From Candidatus Gastranaerophilales bacterium (GTDB taxonomy: Bacteria > Cyanobacteriota > Vampirovibrionia > Gastranaerophilales > Gastranaerophilaceae): a stretch of 64,000 nt of DNA. The notes beneath the pieces are model-generated. The model searched no databases. It saw nothing but the letters and a program-made list of their open reading frames with translations, and had not been told where the DNA came from. Position numbers and translations under genes: made by a program. Positions 4,334 through 36,714 of the stretch are shown in pieces (the first letter of the stretch is position 1; each line of letters begins with the position of its first letter). The stretch is taken from contig CALVED010000006.1 of assembly GCA_944326485.1 (NCBI GenBank), forward strand, positions 18,944 through 82,943, read 5' to 3'.

Positions 4334-5363
4334 ATTCAATATTTATATATAATTTTTCATCATTAATAATTTTTTCAATATTTAATATACTATATAATTG
4401 ATTATTTTCCATAAATTCAGAATAAATATATTTTGAATTTTCATCAGTAAAAACAGAAGGTTGAACATCTTTTAGATTTTTTATGTATTTAATATCATCA
4501 ACTAATAATGCAAGATTATAATTTTTACCTTCTACTATAATAATTTTGTTACTTTTTATAGTTGGATTATTTGTACTATTTAGGAATGATTTTAAATCAA
4601 TAACAACTAGAAAATCACCTCTTAAGTTTATTATTCCTTTTATATATTTGTTAGTATATGGAAGTTTTGTAATATTTAATCTTTTTACAGAAGTAAATTC
4701 TTTGATAAATTTTAAATCTATATAATAATTATGGTTTTCTAAAGTAAATAATACATATTGATTGGTAGTGTTCAAATCAAAAGAGAATGAGAAAGCATCT
4801 TGTTTTTGAATGTTCTGAATACTTCTTAATTCTAAAATTTGTTTTGATTTTTCATCTTGAGGAAATAATTCTAAATAATTAATTTTACCTTCTTTTGCAA
4901 CTGTATCAGATACTATTTTATCCAATGCTTTTGTATTTATAATATTTATAGAAATAGTATTAATTTTATAAATATCTTTTAAAATAGAATTTCTAGATGC
5001 AAATGGAATAGGCTGTAAATCTGATTTATTAATATGTATAATATTGGAAATTGCTTCTGTATGTATTGCAAAACAATTTCCTTCGATACAAACTACTATT
5101 AATTGATTATTAATAGTGAAGTCAGAAGTTTCAAATCCTAAAAACGGACAAATATCTATTACTTTAATCATTAATCCTTTATAGTTAAATATACCAACAA
5201 TACCTTCAGGTGCAATTTGAGGTATCTCTATAATTGGTATATTAATAACTTCAATTACATCTTTTATATTAATAGCATATTGTTTTTCTTTTAGATAAAA
5301 AACAATATAATAGTCAGATGCTTCTTTTGAATTTACGGTAGTTAATGAATAGTTATTGTTCAT
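4332..5363 (-). CDS. CheW-like coupling protein with two CheW domains
   Basis: 343-aa ORF. Two repeated segments (YYIVFYLKEKQYAINIKDV... and QYVLFTLENHNYYIDLKFI... IKGIINLRGDFLVVIDL) match the CheW-fold pattern. Adjacent to MCP and CheA genes. Confidence 0.7.
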   Translation of the reverse strand: MNNNYSLTTVNSKEASDYYIVFYLKEKQYAINIKDVIEVINIPIIEIPQIAPEGIVGIFNYKGLMIKVIDICPFLGFETSDFTINNQLIVVCIEGNCFAIHTEAISNIIHINKSDLQPIPFASRNSILKDIYKINTISINIINTKALDKIVSDTVAKEGKINYLELFPQDEKSKQILELRSIQNIQKQDAFSFSFDLNTTNQYVLFTLENHNYYIDLKFIKEFTSVKRLNITKLPYTNKYIKGIINLRGDFLVVIDLKSFLNSTNNPTIKSNKIIIVEGKNYNLALLVDDIKYIKNLKDVQPSVFTDENSKYIYSEFMENNQLYSILNIEKIINDEKLYINIE

Positions 5364-5457
5364 TTTTAATTAAACCTTTATAATAAGTATACTATAAATT
5401 AATGATTATAAAATCGAGGAAATAGACTATAATTAAACATATCAAAAGGAGTATAAA

Positions 5458-6495
5458 ATGGCAGGAAGAGATATAAGTTTAATAAACAGATTAGCCAAGA
5501 AGAACATAAAAGATACAGTAATATTAGGATTAGTAACAATTCTTATTGTTGCTATCATTTTGTTTGTTGAAAATAAAACAATAATGGTCTGTTCAACTGT
5601 AGCAACACTATTATTTTATTTTTTGCAATATCAATTATCAAGAAATGAATTAATAAAATCAATTGATAAATTAATAGATAATGAATTAAAAGAATTTCAA
5701 AAAATATCAGTAAAAGTATTGCAATTAAGTGAAAAACAACGACAATTAACTCATAAATATACAGAAATGTTAAATAATGTTGTACAAACAACAAAATTAT
5801 TTAAAAGTAGTGCTTTAAAAACAAAAGAGAGAACACAAGGTATTTCAGGAAAAATTCAAGAAACTTATGATGCGTCAGGAAGAGAGGCAAAATCTTTAGA
5901 AGAAAATATTTCAACGATGCAAAATTTAAAACACAAAGTACAAGTAATTGCCGAGTTGATTATAGAATTAACCGATTATATTAAACAAATCGGTTCAACA
6001 GTAAACATAGTAGAAAACATATCAGAACAAACAAATATGCTGGCATTAAATGCAGCTGTAGAAGCAGCAAGAGCTGGTGAATATGGTAAAGGTTTTGCTG
6101 TTGTTGCCGGTGAAATTAGAAAACTGGCAGATGAATCGAAACAAGCAACAAACAAAATTACTACTCTTGTTTCAGAAATAGAACAAACTACATCATCGAC
6201 AATTATGGCAACGGAAGATGGAGCAAAAGAAATTGAAAATGGTGTAAGAAATGCTACAAATATTAGCGATAATATTTCTTCTCTTGTAAATAATATAAAA
6301 GAATTAGGTATGAATGTAAATGATATTCTAACAGCATCTGTAGAACAACAATCTATTACTAATGATGTATTAGAAGCTGTTGAAAATATGCAGAAAGGTA
6401 TTTCTGAATCAATAAATACATTAGAGGAAAATATAGAAAATATAAGAGCATTCTCGGAAATTTCTACAAATATTAAAGATAATATTGCTAATTAA
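5458..6495 (+). CDS. methyl-accepting chemotaxis protein (short, membrane-anchored)
   Basis: Highly conserved MCP signalling hairpin [38 protein letters not shown]. One or two N-terminal TM segments. Confidence 0.85.
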
Positions 6496-6506: not shown

Positions 6507-9500
6507 ATGCAATACAATCCTGAAGAATTAGATGAAATATTAAATATATATAAGGCTGAAAGTGAAGAAATAATCCAAGAACTAAATGATGGTTTTTTGG
6601 AACTTGAAAAAAATCCTGAAAATAAAGAACCATTAAAAAAATTATTTCAATTGGTTCACTCTCTAAAAGGTGCATCTCGAATGCTTGGTTTTAATAGTGT
6701 TCAAGATATTTCACACAAATTAGAAGATATACTTTCTTATTGGAAGAAAGAAGGTACTATTATTGAAAAAAATTCTTTTCAGGTAATTTATGAAGTTTGT
6801 GATTTAATAAATGAACTTATTATAAAATCAGTTCAACAAAAATCAGATTATATTGATAATAATGTAATGGTTTTTCTTAATAAATTAGATAATTTTATTT
6901 TAAGTGAAAAACCGATAGATAATTCTGAAAAAATAGTAAAAAAAGAAAATTATCTTGTTGAAAAAAGTAAAGATATAGATGCCATTATATTGGAGTTAAT
7001 TTTTATCCTTGGAAAAAATAATGAAAAAGACAATATAGATGAAATTCTTTCAGTTATAGTTGATAATATAAATTTACTTTATGAAATTTTTAATAAAACG
7101 GAATATGATAATGTTAAAAATCATATAAAAGAAATTCTAAACGAAATAAATAATAATAATGATAAAGAAAATGCAATATTAAAATTCAAAGAGCAAATTA
7201 AGTCATTGAAAGATGAAATATATATTATATTTAAAGATTTAAATATAAATCTTTCATCTGCAAAATTAAGAAAAAAAGAAGAGACAAAAGTTGAAAAAGA
7301 AGAAAAACAAAGATGTAATGAAGATATAGAAAAAAAATTTGATTTGTTGTTAAAAAATCTTCCAAAGATAAAATATGAAAAAAATTATATAAATAAAGTT
7401 AATGAAGAACTTAAATCATTAATAGTATTATCAAATAATAAACAAACGGAAATAATCATATCTAAAACTTTGAATATATTAAAATTATTTCAAGATAAAG
7501 ATATTTTGATAGATAACGAATGTTATATGGTAATCTTACAAAGTATATATCTGGCAAAAAGGATGTCTTTAAATGAAAAGGAAGAAAACTTAAATAATTT
7601 AAATTTTCTTATTCAGAGATTAAATGTAGTTGAAGATATGTTTAAAATAACCAATCTAAGAAAGCAAAAAACAAACAATGATGAATTAAAAATACAACCA
7701 CAATCGAAATCTTCAATTATAGATATTGATACTATTAAAAATAATATTAATTCTTTTGAATTACAAGAGATAAAAACATTAAGAGTTGATACTTCTAAAC
7801 TGGATAATTTAATTTCACAGACAGGAGAGCTTTTAGTAAATGGAATAAAAACAAGAGAACATCTTTTTGAATTGTCAAATATTAATATGAAATTAATTCA
7901 ATGGAATAGTGCAAGTAAGAAAATAATAAATTATCTTAAATATTTAGAGAAGAAAGGTTTTTTTAATACAGAGTTTGATGATTCTGCTTTTGTGTTTTAT
8001 AAAAAAGCACAAAATTTCTTTTGGAATAATGCTGATATGATAACAGATATTCAAAAAGATTTTAATCGTTTATATAATATTATTTCTGAAGATGATAATA
8101 AACTGCATCAAACAGCTATGGAGATAGAAACAATAGCTAAAGGAATAAGAGTTCTTCCATTGGCAACAATTTTTCATTCTTTCCCAAGAATGATAAGAGA
8201 TATTGCAATAGAGAATAAAAAGAAAGTAGATTTTATTGTATCCGGAAGTGATACGACTGTTGATAAAAAGCTAATAGAAGAAATAAAAATGCCATTAATT
8301 CATATTCTAAGAAATGCTGTTTCTCATGGTATTGAAGTGCCGGAAGAAAGGATTAAGAATGGTAAGAAAGATATTGGGATTGTAAAATTAAGTGCAAAAC
8401 AAGCAGAAAATAATGTAATAATTACTATAGAAGATGACGGATATGGAATAAATCTTGAAAAAGTTAAAAAGACAGCGATAAGTAAAGGTATTCTTACAGA
8501 AGAGGAAATAGAAAATATTACAAATGAACAATTAATGAAGTTATTATTTTTACCCGGTTTTTCTACGGAAGATTCTGTAAATGAAATATCTGGAAGAGGA
8601 ATAGGGCTTGATATCGTTAAAACAAAAATTAATAATTTAAATGGTGATATTTATATAGATTCTATACTTAATAAGGGATGTCGCGTTACGATTAAATTAC
8701 CTGTATCAATGTCTACTATAAAAACATTTATTATATTGGTGAATGATCAAAAATATGCCATACCGGTTAATGCAATAAAATATGTAAAAAGAATAAATAA
8801 GAATGATATTTTTGACAAGAATGGACAGAATTATATTATTTATGATGAACATTCAATACCGATATATTCTTTGTCAGAAGTATTAGGTGAAAAATCAGAG
8901 ACAATATTACAAGAAAAACAGTTGACTGTAATAATAATAGAAAATCAAGAAAGGCAAGCTGCTTTTGTTATTGATAAATTATTGGGAGATCAGGAAGTAT
9001 TTCATAAGAAATTAGAACTACCGATAATAAAAATAAAGAATATAAGTGGCTTTACAACTCTTTCTACCGGAGAAATATGTCTTATTGTTAATCCTTATGA
9101 GTTAATAAGAAATACTATATTGACTAATTATTTGTCTTCTTTTGATATAAAACAAATAGGTAAAGATAATGAAGTTAATTTATATGAAAAAAGACTTGTA
9201 ATATATGGTGACAATAGTTTCGAATTTATAAAAAAAGATATTGAAGAAGAATATAAGAATGTTATTACTTTCAATAATATTTATTCTGTTCATGACTATA
9301 TACAAAAAAATGAGATTGATATTTTTATATGCAAATTTAATAATGAAGAAAAAGATAAAGAATTAATCAAACTTATAAAATATATAAAGAATGATGAGAA
9401 CTTGAGTAAAATAAAAATAGTAATTTTTTCTGATTTAACAATAATAGAAATATTAAATGTATTAGAAGGTATAAAACCTGATTTATATATAAAAATAAAT

Positions 9501-30083: not shown

Positions 30084-33000
30084 ATGACAGAAGTGAAAAA
30101 TAAATATAAACCGAATGAACGCCAGCAGCAATGTATTGATAACATACAGGGCAAAGTAATGGTGCTTGCAGGGCCGGGGACTGGGAAAACCTTTACGCTT
30201 ACAAAGCGCATTGCCTCAATGATTAATAATAATATTAAACCTGCCAATATATTATGCCTTACTTTTTCTGATGCTGCTGCAAGTGAGATGAAGTCAAGAC
30301 TTAACAGTGAGATTGGTATTATGGCTTCAGAGGTTAATATATATACTTATCACTCGTTTTGTAATGAAATTATCAGAATGTATCCTGATAAATTTGGTGT
30401 TTCGCAGAATGTTTCTTTAATAAATTCAACCATCAAGCGAGAACTTATGGTTCAAACAATTGATGAAGCGAAATTAGAGTATTTTGTTGCTGATAGAGGC
30501 GGAAAATATTATTATATTGATACTTTTTTGAATTGTATTGCCAAATTAAAATCACTTAGAATAGATAAAGATTCTTATCTTAGTTATATTGAAACAAATC
30601 CTTCTTTAATGCCAAATATTATTAAATTGAGGAAGGAGATAGAAGAGAAACAACAAAAAGGCAATACGAGGTATGCAACAAAGTTAAAAGAAATTGAAAA
30701 AACAGAAGAAAATATTAATAAAGCGAAAGAATTGTGGAATGTTTATGAAATCTATTCAAGAAAAATGGTTGAAAACAATCTGATAGATTTTGCGGATATG
30801 ATAAATCTTGTTATTGATAAATTTGAGCAGGATAGTACATTTCTTTATGAGATATCTAATAAATATAAGTATTTTTTGGTAGATGAATATCAAGATACTA
30901 ACGATTTACAGAATAGCATATTATTTAATTTAATAGATTCAAATGATAATAAAAATGTATTTGTAGTAGGAGATGATGATCAGGTAATATATGGGTTTCA
31001 GGGTGCAAACAGTGAAAATGTTGATAATTTTCTTAAAAGGTATCCTGATACAAAGTTAATATGTTTAGTAGAGAATAACCGTTCTGCGCAAAATATTTTA
31101 GATTTAAGTTATAGAGTTGTAACGCAAGATTCTACAAGGCTTGAGGGGAATCCGCTTTTTCAGGCTTTTAATATAGAAAAAAAATTAAGAGCGGTTAATC
31201 CCAAAGTTATTGCTAAAGAACAAAAAATTAAACGCTGGCAGTTTGGTGAACTTATTCAAGAATATAATTATATTACTGAAGATATAGTTAATCTTATTAA
31301 TTCAGAAAGATGTCCTATAGATGAGGATACAAAAGAAAAGAAGCTTTCTGAAATAGCAATAATATCGACAAAGAAAAGTGAGTTAAGGGAATTTGAGCAG
31401 CGATTAAAAGCTAGAAATATACCTTGTCAAATTAACGAAGGACAGGATATTTTTAAAATAAAATCTGTAATTAGTCTTTATTTTTATATGAAGGCATTAA
31501 ATAACCAGATAAGTGATTCTGATAAATTATTTGGTTTATTGTTAACGGAACCGTTTTGTATTGACTTAAATGATTATAATAAATTGTATAAAGAGTTTAA
31601 GCGCCAATGTGTTGATAATAATGATTTTATATCTAATATGAAAAGATTATCTGATTGGGTTAATCCGCAAAAAATAAATGATTTTGTAAAAACATTTGAG
31701 TATCTAAAGCAATATGCGGCATCAAATAATTTAAGAAATACAGTTATAGAAATAATTAACAGAACAAGAATTTTAGATTTTTTCTATTCTTCTGAAACTA
31801 ATAGGTTTGAAAATATATCAGGATTAAAGAAGGTAATAGATGAAGCTGTTGATTATATGCAGTTAAATAAGAGTGTATCATTAAATGATTTTGTAAAAAG
31901 GCTTGAATATGCACATCTTAATGATATTGAAATAAGCACAGAAAAAAGCAGTGTTATACAAAACAGTGTTCAGCTTTTAACATATCATGCATCAAAGGGC
32001 AGAGAGTTTGAATGGGTATATTTACCGGATTTACTTGAAGGAAATTGGGAAAAATTCAGAATGCCTGGTGAATATAAACTTATTACGGAAAAATATTACG
32101 AGGAAGCGCAAGCCGAGAAGCGAAAAGATTCTGAGCTGTTGAAAAAGTTATTTGTAGGAATAACGCGATCTAAGTATGGACTGGTTCTTTCGCATTCAGA
32201 TAATGTTGAGCGAAAGCCCAAAGCTGTTACAAAGTATCTTAATGTTTTAAACGATTTTGATTTTGAAAAACAAACTTTTGAATATAAAGAAGATGATTTT
32301 GCAGAGGAGTTATATAAATCTCTTTCTCAGGAAGCAATAAATCATAGAAAGATGTTTGAGAATGAAATAAGGGAACGAGTTAAAAATATTATTTTAAGTC
32401 CTACAAGCATTAACAGTTATATAAGATGTGCAAAGAGTTTCTTTTATAAATCGGTTTTAAAGTTAGAAATGTCTGAGACTGATTATGATGCATTAAATTA
32501 TGGAAGTATTATTCATGATATTTTATACAGATCAATAAAAAATGCGATGAATACAGGTTGTTATATTCCAAAAGAGGAAGCAATAGATATATTTAATAAG
32601 AAAATGGATTATAGTATTTTCAAGACGAAAGCAGATAAAGAGTTATATTATAACCGCGGGATTAAATTATTAAATGGATATTATGTTAAATTTTGCGAAT
32701 TACCAATTAATATAATAGATAATGTTGAAGAAGAATTTAGCAATATAGACGTAAACGGCGAGGTTATAAACGGTAAAATAGACAGGATTGAGAAATTTTC
32801 TGACGGCACTTATGCGCTTTATGATTACAAAACAAGCAGATATACGAGTGCAAATCAAATGATAGTTGGCGGTAAGAAAGAAGATTATTATAATCAGTTA
32901 TGTTGTTATAAATATGCATACGAGAAAAAATATCCGGATAGAAAAGTATCTAAAGCAGGGATTATATATGTAGAAGATAATAAAACTGCAGAAATTGTTT

Positions 33001-33152
33001 TAACTTCTGAAGATATGGATTATATTGAAAATCTTATTTCAGATATATATAAAAATATAAGAGAGTTAAATTTTAGTCCAAAATCAAATATTGATAAAAA
33101 TATATGCGAGCAATGTCCATATAAAGATTTATGTGCGTTAGATGTTATATAG
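30084..33152 (+). CDS. UvrD/PcrA-type superfamily-1 helicase fused to a C-terminal PD-(D/E)XK (Cas4/AddB-like, Cys-cluster) nuclease domain
   Basis: Walker A AGPGTGKT. Motif II DEYQDT. Motif III VGDDDQVIYGFQGA. ENNRS. TYHASKGREFEWVY. VGITRSK. C-terminal C..(GKIDRIE..LYDYKTS)..QLCCY..CEQCPYKDLC. Confidence 0.85.
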   Translation: MTEVKNKYKPNERQQQCIDNIQGKVMVLAGPGTGKTFTLTKRIASMINNNIKPANILCLTFSDAAASEMKSRLNSEIGIMASEVNIYTYHSFCNEIIRMYPDKFGVSQNVSLINSTIKRELMVQTIDEAKLEYFVADRGGKYYYIDTFLNCIAKLKSLRIDKDSYLSYIETNPSLMPNIIKLRKEIEEKQQKGNTRYATKLKEIEKTEENINKAKELWNVYEIYSRKMVENNLIDFADMINLVIDKFEQDSTFLYEISNKYKYFLVDEYQDTNDLQNSILFNLIDSNDNKNVFVVGDDDQVIYGFQGANSENVDNFLKRYPDTKLICLVENNRSAQNILDLSYRVVTQDSTRLEGNPLFQAFNIEKKLRAVNPKVIAKEQKIKRWQFGELIQEYNYITEDIVNLINSERCPIDEDTKEKKLSEIAIISTKKSELREFEQRLKARNIPCQINEGQDIFKIKSVISLYFYMKALNNQISDSDKLFGLLLTEPFCIDLNDYNKLYKEFKRQCVDNNDFISNMKRLSDWVNPQKINDFVKTFEYLKQYAASNNLRNTVIEIINRTRILDFFYSSETNRFENISGLKKVIDEAVDYMQLNKSVSLNDFVKRLEYAHLNDIEISTEKSSVIQNSVQLLTYHASKGREFEWVYLPDLLEGNWEKFRMPGEYKLITEKYYEEAQAEKRKDSELLKKLFVGITRSKYGLVLSHSDNVERKPKAVTKYLNVLNDFDFEKQTFEYKEDDFAEELYKSLSQEAINHRKMFENEIRERVKNIILSPTSINSYIRCAKSFFYKSVLKLEMSETDYDALNYGSIIHDILYRSIKNAMNTGCYIPKEEAIDIFNKKMDYSIFKTKADKELYYNRGIKLLNGYYVKFCELPINIIDNVEEEFSNIDVNGEVINGKIDRIEKFSDGTYALYDYKTSRYTSANQMIVGGKKEDYYNQLCCYKYAYEKKYPDRKVSKAGIIYVEDNKTAEIVLTSEDMDYIENLISDIYKNIRELNFSPKSNIDKNICEQCPYKDLCALDVI

Positions 33153-33155
33153 GTG

Positions 33156-33185
33156 TTAAGTAGCAACAAGTCTTTTATCTTCCAT
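33156..33185 (-). pseudogene. truncated sixth MEDKRL-family cassette (9 codons then stop)
   Basis: The minus strand reads ATG GAA GAT AAA AGA CTT GTT GCT ACT TAA, preceded by GGAAAAATCA. It is identical in sequence to the conserved 5' end of the five intact paralogs and abuts the helicase gene stop. Confidence 0.7.
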
Positions 33186-33217
33186 TGATTTTTCCTTTTA
33201 ACAATATATTCTACAAC

Positions 33218-33544
33218 TTAAGAAAATAATGAGGAAACTGCGATACTAACAAAAAGAATATAAGCCATAAAGAAAAAATAAATAAAAGCGAATATATTAA
33301 ATAATATTTTTGTAATTTTCAAAATTTTTTCATTTTTAATATTTTTAAATTTAATAATATTATTAATTAAAATTGCAAGAATAGGAATAGGAAAATAAAA
33401 AGAAAAAAATATTATAATTCTTATAAAATGTTCAAAATCTTTAATATGACCAATATAGAAAAGATCAATAATAGTGGAGGAAAAAGCAAAAACAAAGAAA
33501 ATAATAATATCTTTTTTAGTAGCAACAAGTCTTTTATCTTCCAT
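33218..33544 (-). CDS. small 3-TM membrane protein, MEDKRL-family paralog (108-aa short form)
   Basis: Conserved N-terminus MEDKRLVATKKDIIIFF. Three hydrophobic segments. Shared motif ILINNIIKFKNI..LKI.K.LFNIF. SD-like spacer upstream. Confidence 0.7.
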   Translation of the reverse strand: MEDKRLVATKKDIIIFFVFAFSSTIIDLFYIGHIKDFEHFIRIIIFFSFYFPIPILAILINNIIKFKNIKNEKILKITKILFNIFAFIYFFFMAYILFVSIAVSSLFS

Positions 33545-33554
33545 TGTTTCTCCT

Positions 33555-33935
33555 TTAACAAATAAAGTTTTGAATTATGTTTAAAGTAAGCTCTGAACTT
33601 TCTTTATATAAATTCATATCTTTGTAAAAATATTTATTAAAAGTATAAATAAAAGAAGTAAATACTCCCATAAATATAATAAAGATAAAAGAGAAAATAT
33701 TAAATAATATTTTTGTAATTTTTAGAAATTTTTCATTTTTAATATTCATAAATTTAATAAAAGAATTAATTAAAATGGCAAGAACAGGCTGGATAAAATA
33801 AAATAAACATATTGAGAATTTATGAAAAAAATCTTCTATATCAATATACATACAAGAAAAAATAGTAAAAGAAAAAGCAAAAATAAAGAAAATAATAATA
33901 TCTTTTTTTGTAGCAATAAGTCTTTTATCTTCCAT
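33555..33935 (-). CDS. small 3-TM membrane protein, MEDKRL-family paralog (126-aa long form)
   Basis: Differs from the 33946..34326 product at one residue (I6 versus V6). The AGGAGAAACA spacer is 10 nt. Confidence 0.75.
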   Translation of the reverse strand: MEDKRLIATKKDIIIFFIFAFSFTIFSCMYIDIEDFFHKFSICLFYFIQPVLAILINSFIKFMNIKNEKFLKITKILFNIFSFIFIIFMGVFTSFIYTFNKYFYKDMNLYKESSELTLNIIQNFIC

Positions 33936-33945
33936 TGTTTCTCCT

Positions 33946-34326
33946 TTAACAAATAAAGTTTTGAATTATGTTTAAAGTAAGCTCTGAACTTTCTTTATAT
34001 AAATTCATATCTTTGTAAAAATATTTATTAAAAGTATAAATAAAAGAAGTAAATACTCCCATAAATATAATAAAGATAAAAGAGAAAATATTAAATAATA
34101 TTTTTGTAATTTTTAGAAATTTTTCATTTTTAATATTCATAAATTTAATAAAAGAATTAATTAAAATGGCAAGAACAGGCTGGATAAAATAAAATAAACA
34201 TATTGAGAATTTATGAAAAAAATCTTCTATATCAATATACATACAAGAAAAAATAGTAAAAGAAAAAGCAAAAATAAAGAAAATAATAATATCTTTTTTC
34301 GTAGCAACAAGTCTTTTATCTTCCAT
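33946..34326 (-). CDS. small 3-TM membrane protein, MEDKRL-family paralog (126-aa long form)
   Basis: Near-identical tandem duplicate of 33555..33935. Confidence 0.75.
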   Translation of the reverse strand: MEDKRLVATKKDIIIFFIFAFSFTIFSCMYIDIEDFFHKFSICLFYFIQPVLAILINSFIKFMNIKNEKFLKITKILFNIFSFIFIIFMGVFTSFIYTFNKYFYKDMNLYKESSELTLNIIQNFIC

Positions 34327-34355
34327 TGATTTTTCCTTATATAAGAGTTTGTATT

Positions 34356-34682
34356 TTAATCAAAAAAATTACTCATTGAATAACAAAATGATAAAAATAA
34401 TGACATAAAAATAAAATAAATTAAAGTAAAAATGTTAAATAATAATTTTATAATTTTTAAAGTTTTTTTATTTCTTATATCTTTAAATTTAATAATATTA
34501 TTAATTAAAATTGCAAAAATTGGAGGAAAAAAATAAATTGAAACAAATAATATTTGAGTAAAAAAGAAATGAAGATTTTCTATTTTGCCAAACCCCCAAA
34601 AGTCAATAATAGTATAAGAAATTGCGATAACAAAGAAAATAATAATATCTTTTTTTGTAGCAACAAGTCTTTTATCTTCCAT
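34356..34682 (-). CDS. small 3-TM membrane protein, MEDKRL-family paralog (108-aa short form)
   Basis: MEDKRLVATKKDIIIFF N-terminus with diverged TM regions. Same length class as 33218..33544. Confidence 0.7.
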   Translation of the reverse strand: MEDKRLVATKKDIIIFFVIAISYTIIDFWGFGKIENLHFFFTQILFVSIYFFPPIFAILINNIIKFKDIRNKKTLKIIKLLFNIFTLIYFIFMSLFLSFCYSMSNFFD

Positions 34683-34692
34683 TGTTTCTCCT

Positions 34693-35073
34693 TTAACAAA
34701 TGAAGTTTTGAATTATGTTTAAAGTAAGCTCTGAACTTTCTTTATAAAACTTCATTCTTTCATAAGAATCTTTATTAAAAGAATTAACACCAGAAGCAAT
34801 TAATCCCATTAATGCAATATAAAGAAAAGAGAAAATGTTAAATAATATTTTTGTAATTTTTAAAAATATTTCATTTTTAATATTCATAAATTTAATAAAA
34901 GAATTAATTAAAATGGCAAGAACCGGCTGGATAAAATAAAATAAACATATTAAGAACCTATGAAAAAAATCTTCTATATACATATACATATAAGAAAAAA
35001 TAGTAAAAGAAAAAGCAAAAACAAAGAAAATAATAATATCTTTTTTAGTAGCAACAAGTCTTTTATCTTCCAT
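34693..35073 (-). CDS. small 3-TM membrane protein, MEDKRL-family paralog (126-aa long form, diverged)
   Basis: Shares the N-terminus and the C-terminal tail YKESSELTLNIIQNFIC with the other long forms. Lies 10 nt after the stop of the 452-aa ORF with an AGGTGAAACA spacer. Confidence 0.75.
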   Translation of the reverse strand: MEDKRLVATKKDIIIFFVFAFSFTIFSYMYMYIEDFFHRFLICLFYFIQPVLAILINSFIKFMNIKNEIFLKITKILFNIFSFLYIALMGLIASGVNSFNKDSYERMKFYKESSELTLNIIQNFIC

Positions 35074-35083
35074 TGTTTCACCT

Positions 35084-36442
35084 CTATTTTTGATTTAAAA
35101 TAGCATTTTTTTCTTCTTTTGGTATTATAACACGATATATTGAAAAATAAGGGGTTATTTTCCCTTTTTCTTGCCTGTTTCTTGCTGCTCTTACAACATC
35201 ATTTTTTTCTCCTTCGTTAAAATCATATACATCTGTAATATATAGTTCAACATCTCCATCTTTATTTATATGCATGTTTTTAATATCTGCATGACCAATA
35301 GCATTTTGCCAGTTGTAATCTTCAAAATTAATGCTTTCATTAATAAAATAGTTTTTGTTCATTGCTTTATTATATTTTTTTAATTTATTAATAAAGTTAG
35401 AATCTTTTATTAGGGCATTTTTTAAACTTTCAGATGATTTTGAATTTACATCTATAAAAATACCTTTTGTTTTTTCTAAATTTTCTTTACCTATTTGCTG
35501 GGTTATTTTATTTTTAAAATATTCTTTAAAATTATCAGGCACTTCGTTATAACTATTATAAATTTTATGTTTTTTAGCGTAAGGTGTATTCATGTAGTAT
35601 TTTGTTTTAGCCATGTGTAAATTTTCTACAGCCTCATCATCTGTTTTTGTAATAAATTTGCTAATTTCTTTTACTATAGGATTATTAATATGGTCTATGG
35701 CAATTTGTTTAGGTATGGCATGAAATCTAAGGTATCTTTCGTTTTCTTTACTGATTTTTTTGCTTCGTTCTTTTATAGCTTCTGCTCTTATTCGTTCAAC
35801 CGTTTCGTTGCCCGGAGTGGATGGGAATTTTAAATTGTTTATAGTTTCTATTCTGAAAGGTTTTGGAGCTGGTTTAGGAGTAATTGTGTTACCTTCAACA
35901 ATAAAATCGTTATCGTTAAGCCCGTAGTTTCTTAAAGATTTTTTATATTGCATTTTATCATTTGTATTAGGAACTTGGGCTTTAATTTCCTGTTGAGTAT
36001 TATCTAAATTGTTTTCATTTTCGTTTGTATTTTCAACAGGCTCATTTTCACTTATTTCTTTATCATCGGCAGTTTTGTTTTTCATTTCAGGATAAAATAA
36101 CTCTGCAACTTCATCATAATTTTTTTGTTTTGGGTCTGTTTTTTTTGTTTTGTCTTTGCTTGTTTCTCTGTCATTTTTATTTTCTGAATTTTCTTTACCC
36201 TCTTCCATATTATCTTTAGAGTTTTTATCTTCATTAGATTTTATTTCTTCTGCTTTAATATTTTCATTTTCTGTTTCTTCCTCATCAGTAATAGATTCTC
36301 CAAGCATTTTGCCTGATTTTTTTGTATTATTATTCTTCTTCTCGGTATTGTTGTAAAGAATATCTGCCCTTTTTTGCAGTTTATCTTCATTATTTGTTTT
36401 ACTGTTTTCTTCTTTAAATTTTTTTAACGGATTAAACCCCAT
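35084..36442 (-). CDS. 452-aa protein of unknown function (charged, disordered N-terminal half; globular C-terminal half); first gene of the cassette operon
   Basis: Long ORF with RBS AGGAAAGGGAA. The N-terminal ~200 aa are rich in K/E/N/D. I do not recognise the C-terminal region (..NWQNAIGHADIKNMHINKDGDVELYITDVYDFNEGEKNDVVRAARNRQEKGK..). No signal peptide. Confidence 0.7.
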   Translation of the reverse strand: MGFNPLKKFKEENSKTNNEDKLQKRADILYNNTEKKNNNTKKSGKMLGESITDEEETENENIKAEEIKSNEDKNSKDNMEEGKENSENKNDRETSKDKTKKTDPKQKNYDEVAELFYPEMKNKTADDKEISENEPVENTNENENNLDNTQQEIKAQVPNTNDKMQYKKSLRNYGLNDNDFIVEGNTITPKPAPKPFRIETINNLKFPSTPGNETVERIRAEAIKERSKKISKENERYLRFHAIPKQIAIDHINNPIVKEISKFITKTDDEAVENLHMAKTKYYMNTPYAKKHKIYNSYNEVPDNFKEYFKNKITQQIGKENLEKTKGIFIDVNSKSSESLKNALIKDSNFINKLKKYNKAMNKNYFINESINFEDYNWQNAIGHADIKNMHINKDGDVELYITDVYDFNEGEKNDVVRAARNRQEKGKITPYFSIYRVIIPKEEKNAILNQK

Positions 36443-36468
36443 AAAATTCCCTTTCCTAATTCAATTTG

Positions 36469-36488
36469 TTTGCATTATCTAATGCAAA
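36469..36488. promoter_or_regulatory. perfect 9-bp inverted repeat (operator-like) 27 nt upstream of the 452-aa gene start
   Basis: TTTGCATTA-TC-TAATGCAAA. Confidence 0.4.
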
Positions 36489-36494
36489 AGTATA

Positions 36495-36527
36495 TCTGAG
36501 AAAAAATTCCTTATAAACTGAAAGACT
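36495..36527 (+). repeat. family-1 repeat, degenerate 5' (module A) stub (copy 8)
   Basis: TCTGAGAAAAAATTCCTTATAAACTGAAAGACT. Confidence 0.55.
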
Positions 36528-36714
36528 TATTATCTAACCATTACATTTTTAGTATAAACTTTTCTTGTAGCTTTTCAAGTCTGCCTCATTAAAATTAGCA
36601 GGTTTTTAAAAATTAAAAGAAGGCAAAACCATGATGAATACTAAGTGGCAGCATTTTGTAAATATTTATTACATTATAATGTAAATATGAGTATAATGTA
36701 CATAATAATGTAAG

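Follow-up and report, generated by a model that had tools for sequence, protein, structure and literature searches.

Bacteriocins of the colicin M (ColM) type pair with membrane immunity proteins of three, four or six transmembrane helices (BmiA, PmiA and PmiC, respectively) by a mechanism that is unknown, and the family is characterised by the motif DxYDx5HR, some of its members having degenerate motifs and doubtful activity (PMC5821083). In ColM itself, residues D226, Y228, D229, H235 and R236 are each essential for activity (PMC8469651). Enzymes of this kind have attracted interest as narrow-spectrum antibacterials, and how they work and how immunity to them is achieved are still unknown (PMC8469651, PMC5821083). 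In this study, we describe a minus-strand locus in a stretch of 64,000 nucleotides (the window) from Candidatus Gastranaerophilales bacterium (contig CALVED010000006.1, positions 18,944 to 82,943), which consists of a 452-amino-acid (aa) open reading frame (ORF) followed by an array of five small paralogous genes for proteins with three predicted transmembrane (TM) segments. The Gastranaerophilales, which belong to the Melainabacteria, are relatives of cyanobacteria that live in the gut and have hardly, if at all, been brought into culture, and a literature search found no prior report of bacteriocins or polymorphic toxins in them.

The best explanation overall, and a likely one, is that the locus is a chromosomal polymorphic toxin–immunity cassette encoding a bacteriocin-like toxin, which may act on the envelope in a ColM-like manner, and a set of membrane immunity proteins. 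The assignment of the large and small genes as toxin and immunity genes, respectively, appears probable, and an envelope or periplasmic target is moderately favoured. The anatomy of the locus, the linkage of its two gene families, copy-number and mosaic variation among the small genes, modular replacement of the toxin C-terminus and a motif common to the toxin and ColM are directly observed; toxicity of the large protein, protection by the small proteins, a periplasmic site of action, the route of delivery and lipid II as the target are inferred. Neither the toxin domain nor the immunity family nor the N-terminal module has been described before; the type of system, polymorphic toxin–immunity, is familiar.

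Linkage of the large gene to an array of small membrane protein genes

The large ORF is followed head-to-tail on the minus strand by the five paralogs, of 108 or 126 aa, and by a nine-codon stub (Table 1). This gene order, together with the ORF sizes and the coordinates of the large ORF, had been given in a preliminary description made from the sequence alone, and both the ORF list and the sequence agree with it. The same holds for the spacers, which are of 10 nt at four junctions (AGGTGAAACA once and AGGAGAAACA three times, carrying AGGTGA or AGGAGA), small gene 1 starting 10 nt past the toxin stop codon, and of 29 nt between small genes 2 and 3; the stub is preceded by a spacer of 32 nt. A junction element of 41 nt, comprising the ribosome-binding site and the first codons, occurs six times with 80–100% identity. 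As this junction recurs six times, and as the two-part layout is found in dozens of independent loci, the arrangement is not due to chance. The stub belongs to the 41-nt repeat family; it is a remnant of the conserved 5′ junction and probably a recombination scar.

To define the linkage of the two gene families, 38 fetched loci were scanned with hidden Markov models (HMMs) for both families in combination with a hydropathy filter. Wherever a toxin gene was intact and the DNA downstream of it usable, small ORFs with at least two predicted TM segments (mostly three) followed directly, from one to eight or more in number. Most arrays comprise one to three genes, while four are present in L002, five in L043, six in L015 and at least eight in L040. 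The apparent exceptions are toxin genes at contig ends (L009, L013, L025 and L027), one with a convergent membrane gene on the opposite strand (L026) and one that is itself truncated (L014). In the reverse direction, look-ups from three small proteins each led to a position beside a toxin gene; the finding that the preliminary description had named as one that would speak against it, small-protein homologs never linked to the large gene, was thus not borne out. Furthermore, in L077 an intact small gene accompanies a toxin pseudogene.

The five small proteins all begin MEDKRL(V/I)ATKKDIIIFF, each contain three hydrophobic segments in a Kyte-Doolittle scan and have in common a basic loop (INxxIKFxxIxNxxxLKIxKxLFNIF), alignment and hydropathy thereby corroborating what had been read from the sequence. 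Residues 1–17 and 48–82 are almost invariant (near-zero entropy), and variation is concentrated in two stretches, residues 27–47 (which take in the end of TM1, loop 1 and the beginning of TM2) and the part from residue 88 onwards (the second half of TM3 and the tail). The earlier statement that TM1, TM2 and TM3 diverge is therefore correct in that the helices vary, but they do not do so uniformly. The small genes are mosaics in which residues 27–47 and 88 to the end occur as interchangeable variants (e.g. P0036, L040_2 and L040_3). Counts of lysine plus arginine (four at the N-terminus, one in loop 1 and four to six in loop 2) predict, by the positive-inside rule, an N-in, C-out topology, which would place both variable cassettes on the periplasmic side. 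Small gene 2 has 44% identity to gene 1 (cluster P0048 is of the same type), and genes 3 and 4, within a 391-nt repeat unit of 98% identity, differ by a single residue, indicating a recent duplication. A profile search with the small proteins retrieved only 26 clusters, all of them short and unannotated. Separately, proteins of 340–350 aa with a lipoprotein-type signal start (LLIGC) and six to nine predicted TM segments were observed in L012, L029 and L037; their C-terminal part matches the small immunity family, and they are apparently fused or extended forms of immunity proteins.

Sister strains carry the cassette at the same site, between a heptosyltransferase gene and a helicase-nuclease gene, with two small genes in L039, five in the window and at least eight in L040. 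The terminal gene, the stub and the flank are common to L039 and the window, gene 5 being 98% identical to the last gene of L039. Within the species, the toxins are 56–87% identical over residues 185–275 and 96–98% identical elsewhere, and four alleles of the central segment can be distinguished, namely those of (i) the window and L039, (ii) L040, L041 and P0002, (iii) L005 and (iv) L075. Each of these alleles has its own first downstream small gene, and identical alleles have the same first gene; in L039, which has the toxin allele of the window, this gene is 96% identical to window gene 1. The first gene downstream of the 446-aa toxin allele of L040 and L041 (allele B) has 99% identity to window genes 3 and 4, which thus behave as orphan immunity genes. 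The pairing of central segment and first gene is suggestive, given the small sample and few alleles. By implication, specificity may reside outside the catalytic core; alternatively, the central segment may be a receptor-binding region which recombines together with its immunity gene. The central segment is, on these sequences, a candidate determinant of immunity specificity or of receptor binding.

The putative toxin and its weak resemblance to colicin M

The 452-aa protein contains no cysteine, and its highest hydropathy over 19 residues is 0.41, indicating that it has neither a signal peptide nor a TM segment. Residues 1–165 are 43% charged (K/R/D/E) and 19% hydrophobic; composition and hydropathy thus bear out the highly charged N-terminal half and the lack of a signal peptide noted previously, and, again in agreement with that account, no LXG, Rhs, PAAR or MafB marker was found. 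The N-terminal region varies in length and sequence across the family, with the short recurring motifs RAxxLY, ADLLYPxMK and TGGA, and the RA(D/E)xL(Y/F) motif was found in 61 of 176 fetched family proteins, distant ones included. The disordered N-terminal module bearing RAxxLY(P)xMK motifs may serve trafficking or import.

Conservation within the family is restricted to the last ~190 residues, and the conserved domain is C-terminal in each full-length member examined, in proteins of up to 952 aa. Distant members have N-termini of the types EHPRDxxGKFTYKNGG, VHVxxYTRxDGTxVxxHYR and MuF-type CxxCxxLDG...PHPNCKC, among others, so that the DxYDFN domain (named after its central motif, see below) sits behind at least four kinds of N-terminus. 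A word-indexed search with the 452-aa protein yielded 34 homologous clusters, and an exhaustive profile (HMM) search of 1.84 billion representatives yielded 297 clusters (E ≤ 1e-3). Most relatives, as well as a locus of 95% identity, derive from metagenome-assembled genomes (MAGs) of Candidatus Gastranaerophilales from animal guts, a few carrying other MAG labels. Genes for lipopolysaccharide, a TonB-dependent receptor and a secretin on related contigs indicate that the cells are diderm.

For none of the six proteins did Pfam, NCBIfam, PADLOC or PHROGs yield a match above threshold, the best match to a PADLOC defence-system model being no better than E 0.34. No muralytic family in Pfam, NCBIfam or PHROGs matched the 452-aa protein, and PDB sequence searches with this protein alone or with the family profile returned nothing at E up to 10. 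A housekeeping family, which would have spoken against a toxin, could not be assigned to it either. A match to the toxin family Res_ParT (E 0.024; 14 bits, the cutoff being 110) was discarded, as were weak matches to STIL_N, LIC_10230 and MAG1140 and matches of one family member each to Ntox8 and Ntox28 (E 0.03–0.05); a match to Tmemb_170 (22.5 bits against a cutoff of 29.5) was put down to hydrophobic composition.

The preliminary description could not assign the C-terminal half to any family, which stands insofar as no curated family was found but has to be amended, as a weak and specific resemblance to the catalytic domain of ColM was detected. The D404-V-Y406-D407-F408-N409 motif of the window protein has the pattern of ColM D226-K-Y228-D229-F-N (the ColM sequence having been verified against PDB 2XMX); it is invariant in 31 of 31 close homologs and has the consensus DTYDFN over 139 domain sequences. 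When the alignment of these 139 sequences was compared with a ColM alignment by hhalign, exactly the DxYDFN stretch was aligned (score 22.6, P 0.0053, probability 6.8%, 24 columns), the ColM profile being thin (four sequences, Neff 1.9), since a word-indexed search with the ColM catalytic domain gave shallow diversity. Shuffling the columns of the ColM alignment 200 times gave a mean score of 11.7 (standard deviation 2.2), and the real score was reached once.

Models of the C-terminal part were generated with AlphaFold2 from a 31-sequence alignment, both for residues 165–452 (288 aa; pLDDT 90, pTM 0.86) and for the domain proper, residues 264–452 (189 aa; pLDDT 88, pTM 0.84). In Foldseek searches of the PDB, where the ColM catalytic domain has the fold of an open half beta-barrel with helices, neither model had a significant match. 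The 189-aa domain ranked the ColM family member pectocin M2 first (E 0.073, probability 0.38, TM-score 0.22, 88 columns), followed by unrelated proteins at E ≥ 0.47, and the 288-aa model ranked pectocin M2 second (E 0.52) and ColM third (E 0.65). The top match of the latter model, the C-terminal domain of BtpeA, a type VI secretion system (T6SS) effector of Bacteroides fragilis (9jdi_A, E 0.036), had a root-mean-square deviation of 16 Å and was lost once the N-terminal 99 residues were trimmed from the model; it was set aside as unexplained. A Foldseek search of the BFVD viral structures found nothing. The resemblance to ColM is accordingly weak but specific, and the domain is not filed as a member of the ColM family. 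ColM-like cleavage of lipid II would be the best single hypothesis for its activity, and is put forward tentatively, as a lead, from the motif and the structural models.

Searching the fetched loci for the N-terminal motif identified proteins with swapped C-termini, the N-terminal module (RAxxLYPxMK or CxGxYxVxGYTR) being fused to the DxYDFN domain, GH24, GH108, M23 or LPD3, and a RAxxLYPTMK box heading the GH24, GH108 and M23 fusion proteins. In L035 and L038, GH24 takes the place of the DxYDFN C-terminus, and a remnant of the toxin tip lies downstream, followed by its three-TM genes; the displaced tip is of 71 aa in L035, where it is nearly identical to the C-terminus of P0031, and the match in L038 is shorter. 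A GH24 replacement with displaced tip and downstream immunity genes was also observed in L036. Replacement by GH24 with the tip left behind is a signature of C-terminal replacement in polymorphic toxin systems. Directly after the GH24 toxin gene of L035 and L038, a gene on the opposite strand encodes a protein with an N-terminal signal-like hydrophobic segment, and these two homologous proteins are candidates, by this segment and their position, for a new family of periplasmic lysozyme immunity proteins. As three of the partner domains degrade peptidoglycan and the GH24 version has a probable periplasmic immunity protein, the whole set would be expected to act in the periplasm. The hallmarks of polymorphic toxins are present in that a shared N-terminus carries alternative C-termini, an adjacent, presumed immunity gene co-varies over the few alleles at hand, and orphan modules and displaced tips occur. 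Conserved linkage, changing copy number and swappable C-termini with displaced tips therefore sustain the earlier suggestion of a toxin with an expanding immunity array. As a separate observation, a second RAEILY-type protein is encoded in L019 (3413–4525), the locus of the LPD3 fusion; its C-terminus lies outside assigned families, and it is possibly an additional toxin type of the system.

Contrary evidence, alternative explanations and the preferred reading

Several observations weigh against the toxin–immunity reading with ColM-like action proposed above. With regard to the catalytic domain, Pfam PF14859 (Colicin_M) was not matched at E up to 10 by the window protein, 31 close homologs or 85 distant homologs, and the Foldseek TM-scores of ~0.2 extend over 88 aligned columns; moreover, since Foldseek makes use of amino-acid identities, the shared motif may itself have raised the rank of ColM. 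The H235/R236 pair of ColM is absent, the equivalent residues K413 and N414 are not conserved, and invariant R421 and Q424 are instead found further along. The catalytic domain is also almost invariant within the species, whereas the immunity genes are highly diversified, which is unexpected if immunity proteins bind the catalytic domain. With regard to delivery, neither a lysis gene nor a secretion-system gene nor a recognisable TonB box is present at the locus. Finally, some loci have a phage context, as L002 follows a putative tail-fibre ORF (1071 aa, no Pfam match) and a DUF1353 gene, L037 and L038 adjoin a GH108 gene (encoding a 158-aa enzyme) and a T7-type portal gene, L031 follows a terminase gene and L047 follows M15_4 and GH108 genes, and distant relatives carry MuF-type or polyvalent-protein-type N-terminal motifs.

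The first group of these observations would be accommodated if the locus were a toxin–immunity cassette whose C-terminal activity is unrelated to that of ColM (for instance another hydrolase with a membrane-embedded or periplasmic target, or an enzyme that has to cross the inner membrane), the DxYDFN motif being convergent or coincidental. In this case, sequence and fold similarity to ColM below any accepted threshold, the missing HR of DxYDx5HR and the lack of a confident fold match in PDB or BFVD would be as expected, and the domain may be a new fold. We nevertheless regard this alternative as rather unlikely, because ColM is the sole PDB family to recur at the top of both fold searches, because the aligned motif holds three of the five residues essential in ColM, because the membrane immunity partners match the ColM precedent, as its three-, four- or six-helix immunity proteins fit the small proteins found here, and because the sister toxins on the same N-terminal scaffold are all wall-targeting.

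The phage context would be explained if the large protein were a virion- or particle-borne effector (of a phage, a tailocin or an element akin to a gene transfer agent), packaged via its N-terminal motifs and breaching the recipient envelope at injection, with the small proteins as a superinfection-exclusion array comparable to T4 Sp, which acts against gp5 lysozyme. Seven of the 85 distant relatives, picked out by eye from their CxxC...PHPNCKC N-termini, match PF04233 (MuF) weakly (best E only 5e-5), others start with EHPRDxxGKF or YTRxDGTxVxxHYR, and the N-terminal module occurs fused to LPD3. Such MuF-type, HPRD-type and LPD3 links point to phage-packaged polymorphic or polyvalent proteins, MuF proteins being located in phage heads (PMC5576092), and the positions of L002, L037/L038 and L031 noted above are of the same import. 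Conversely, the window protein has no match to PF04233 and hence no MuF domain, the window and many other loci have housekeeping neighbours only, and the 2.9 million viral contigs of IMG/VR yielded no relative, three family-pattern scans giving chance motif matches only. Additionally, exclusion alone would leave unexplained both the retention of the enzyme gene in a chromosomal cassette and the correspondence between first small gene and toxin allele. Phage exclusion, which had also been considered in the preliminary description, thus keeps some standing as an option but fits less well, as most loci, including that of the window, have no phage genes alongside, and we consider a particle-borne effector of this kind improbable. 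With respect to the preferred toxin–immunity reading, the candidate delivery routes are either colicin-like release and import or transport by a particle.

The N-terminus of class I holins, lambda S105 among them, lies outside (N-out) and the C-terminus, with its basic tail, inside (C-in). A phage-derived lysis cassette, with the large protein as an unusual endolysin and the three-TM proteins as class I holins, would be suggested by the likeness of ~100–130-aa three-TM proteins beside a wall-directed enzyme to a holin–endolysin pair, by the small genes of L037/L038 next to the 158-aa GH108 enzyme and portal genes and by the position of L002 after a tail-fibre gene, where lysis genes often lie, but is very improbable, since up to eight diversified mosaic paralogs with strain-specific content are not a holin feature, the predicted N-in, C-out topology is the opposite of that of class I holins and no charged cytoplasmic C-tail is present in the 108-aa forms, the enzyme has a 165-residue disordered N-terminus, most loci lie outside prophages, endolysin-type genes (M15_4 and GH108) are already in place upstream in L047, and L077 keeps its small gene beside a decayed enzyme gene. 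A known defence system was rejected, as no PADLOC model matched.

On the preferred toxin–immunity reading, the 452-aa protein would be a bacteriocin-like toxin of three parts, namely a charged N-terminal module, a hypervariable central segment and a conserved C-terminal enzyme that would attack the envelope from the periplasmic side, where a divergent ColM-like active site (D404, Y406 and D407) may cleave the peptidoglycan precursor lipid II. The five small proteins would be inner-membrane immunity proteins of N-in, C-out orientation, with conserved cytoplasmic parts and hypervariable, recombination-shuffled parts facing the periplasm. The first small gene would protect against the toxin allele of the cell itself, and the remaining ones would be orphan immunity genes directed against alleles of competing strains, as suggested for genes 3 and 4, which correspond to the cognate gene of a different toxin allele. 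Growth and shrinkage of the array would come about through recombination at the conserved gene junctions.

Flanking DNA, implications and comparison with known systems

The coordinates of the features discussed are listed in Table 1. In the window, the cassette is flanked by a Glyco_transf_9 heptosyltransferase gene and by the convergent helicase-nuclease gene, whose stop codon is 4 nt from the end of the stub, and has no phage neighbours; likewise, L001/L006, L003, L039–L041, L043/L044, L045/L046 and L075 have housekeeping neighbours only. In L043 (10001–13198) and L044, of another Gastranaerophilales genome, the toxin gene and five small genes of 116–118 aa were observed inside the ribosomal protein cluster, directly after rplR (L18). 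Between the DUF1353 and toxin genes of L002, where a phage tail module ends, an ORF (7726–7965) encodes a protein of 79 aa that combines a single N-terminal TM segment with a coiled coil; its XhlA-like match is weak (E 0.0025, below the cutoff), and it may be holin-like or lysis-associated.

The intergenic region upstream of the window toxin gene contains two perfect palindromes, TACATTATAATGTA at 36670–36683, which overlaps a TATAAT-like hexamer, and TTGCATTA-GA-TAATGCAA at 36470–36487, about 28 nt ahead of the toxin start codon. These may be operators through which toxin expression is regulated, as in SOS-controlled colicins, or the AT-rich composition of the DNA may have produced them by chance. 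Across five strains the region has 99% identity and is thus uninformative on conservation, and in a promoter scan of it promoter-like matches were no commoner than in shuffles.

Table 1. Location of the features of the locus in the window and of related features in other loci (prefix L).
Feature	Location	Strand	Remark
Large ORF, 452 aa (presumed toxin gene)	35084..36442	minus	ORF list and sequence
N-terminal charged low-complexity region, residues 1–165	35948..36442	minus	Candidate trafficking/import module
First RA(D/E)xL(Y/F) motif, RADILY, residues 25–30	36353..36370	minus	Family consensus KxxxRAxxLY
Second motif copy, VAELFYPEMK, residues 112–121	36080..36109	minus	Family consensus ADLLYPxMK
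Hypervariable central segment, residues 192–266	35645..35869	minus	Beta-hairpins and helices just ahead of the catalytic core
Conserved C-terminal alpha/beta domain, residues 267–452	35087..35644	minus	Predicted toxic enzyme domain
D404-V-Y406-D407-F408-N409 motif	35216..35233	minus	Pattern identical to ColM D226-K-Y228-D229-F-N
Small gene 1, 126 aa, 3 TM	34693..35073	minus	Presumed cognate immunity gene of the window toxin allele
Small gene 2, 108 aa, 3 TM	34356..34682	minus	Presumed orphan immunity gene
Small gene 3, 126 aa, 3 TM	33946..34326	minus	Presumed orphan immunity gene
Small gene 4, 126 aa	33555..33935	minus	Arose by recent tandem duplication of gene 3
Small gene 5, 108 aa, 3 TM	33218..33544	minus	Conserved last array gene
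Nine-codon stub, ATGGAAGATAAAAGACTTGTTGCTACTTAA (MEDKRLVAT*)	33156..33185	minus	Closes the array
Upstream intergenic region, 272 nt	36443..36714	minus	Presumed promoter/operator of the toxin gene
Convergent neighbour, 1022 aa, fused UvrD-type helicase and PD-(D/E)XK/Cas4-like nuclease (AddB/AddA-like)	30084..33152	plus	Annotated via the identical gene in L039
Phage_lysozyme GH24 fusion	L038:340-1182, L035:3125-3946		E 1e-28
GH108 fusion	L030:6400-7416		E 3e-21; frameshifted copy in L029
Peptidase_M23 fusion	L011:9717-10418		E 1e-24
LPD3 (polyvalent-protein) fusion	L019:9874-11352		RAEILY-type N-terminal module; E 3e-9
GH24-adjacent homologous proteins, 136 aa and 179 aa	L035:3949-4359, L038:1191-1730	minus	Weak sub-threshold Pfam Adhesin_E match, E 0.0027
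Extended immunity-like proteins, 340–350 aa	L012:3088-4125, 4595-5611; L029:664-1716, 1764-2789; L037:1108-2145

If the toxin–immunity reading is true, the locus represents a new toxin-domain family of ~300 representative clusters that is absent from Pfam, NCBIfam and PADLOC, a new family of membrane immunity proteins and a new N-terminal trafficking module common to several wall-degrading toxins, as well as a natural example of immunity arrays that evolve via cassette shuffling. Should lipid II be cleaved in the absence of the canonical His-Arg pair, both the sequence space and the host range of ColM-like enzymes would be widened, and the pairing of central segment and first immunity gene makes the question of specificity directly testable. 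A more far-reaching proposal, which we consider speculative and doubtful, is that of a new bacteriocin system of gut Melainabacteria in which one RAxxLYPxMK module would deliver at least four envelope-degrading enzymes, among them a divergent ColM-like lipid II hydrolase fold (~300 clusters, partly on phage-type scaffolds). Immunity in such a system would be conferred by a membrane 'barcode' protein whose two periplasm-facing cassettes recognise the central segment of the toxin rather than blocking its active site, and recombination at the junctions would shuffle the cassettes to give new specificities.

Among the described systems, the ColM type (ColM, pectocins M1 and M2, syringacin M and pyocin M; PF14859) is like the present one in the order of a disordered N-terminus, a central domain and a C-terminal enzyme, in a toxin without signal peptide, in the DxYDFN motif (ColM D226KYDFN, with its metal-binding Asp and its essential Tyr and Asp residues) and in being the top or near-top, though weak, fold match. 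In both, an adjacent gene encodes an integral inner-membrane protein for immunity, a presumed role here (ColM-type examples are Cmi, PmiA with four helices, BmiA with three, as in the small proteins, and PmiC with six), and the central and N-terminal regions are diversified by recombination. Unlike ColM, the window toxin has no detectable homology to PF14859, no HR of DxYDx5HR and no recognisable TonB box; its domain is larger, with extra helices, its host is a member of the Melainabacteria rather than of the Proteobacteria, and its immunity genes form tandem mosaic arrays instead of a single gene and belong to a family unrelated in sequence to those in the libraries searched.

Pesticin is a bacteriocin with a T4-lysozyme-like killing domain, against which the periplasmic immunity protein Pim protects. 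It resembles only the sister toxins of L035 and L038, in which the N-terminal module and GH24 are followed by the gene of a protein with a signal-like segment, and the likeness is one of layout; this layout is, by analogy, that of a periplasm-acting muramidase bacteriocin. The MuF toxins of temperate phages (Jamet et al. 2017, PMC5576092) and the LPD polyvalent proteins compare with the superfamily in the MuF-type motif of seven distant members, in the small ORFs that follow the toxin, in the fusion of the N-terminal module to LPD3 and in the prophage association of some loci. Unlike MuF toxins, the window protein has no MuF domain, phage neighbours or IMG/VR relatives, and described MuF toxins mostly hit cytoplasmic targets (nucleases, ADP-ribosyltransferases and (p)ppApp synthetases).

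With regard to the contact-dependent inhibition (CDI) system CdiA-CT/CdiI and the Rhs and MafB systems, no marker of a type V, VI or VII secretion system and no Rhs, PAAR, LXG or MafB marker is present here, the N-terminal module is a disordered one with short motifs rather than a folded trafficking domain, and the immunity proteins are integral to the membrane. In common with these systems, however, a conserved N-terminal module carries swappable C-terminal toxin domains with an immunity gene immediately downstream, displaced tips keep their immunity genes, orphan immunity genes accumulate and the content of the array is strain-specific.

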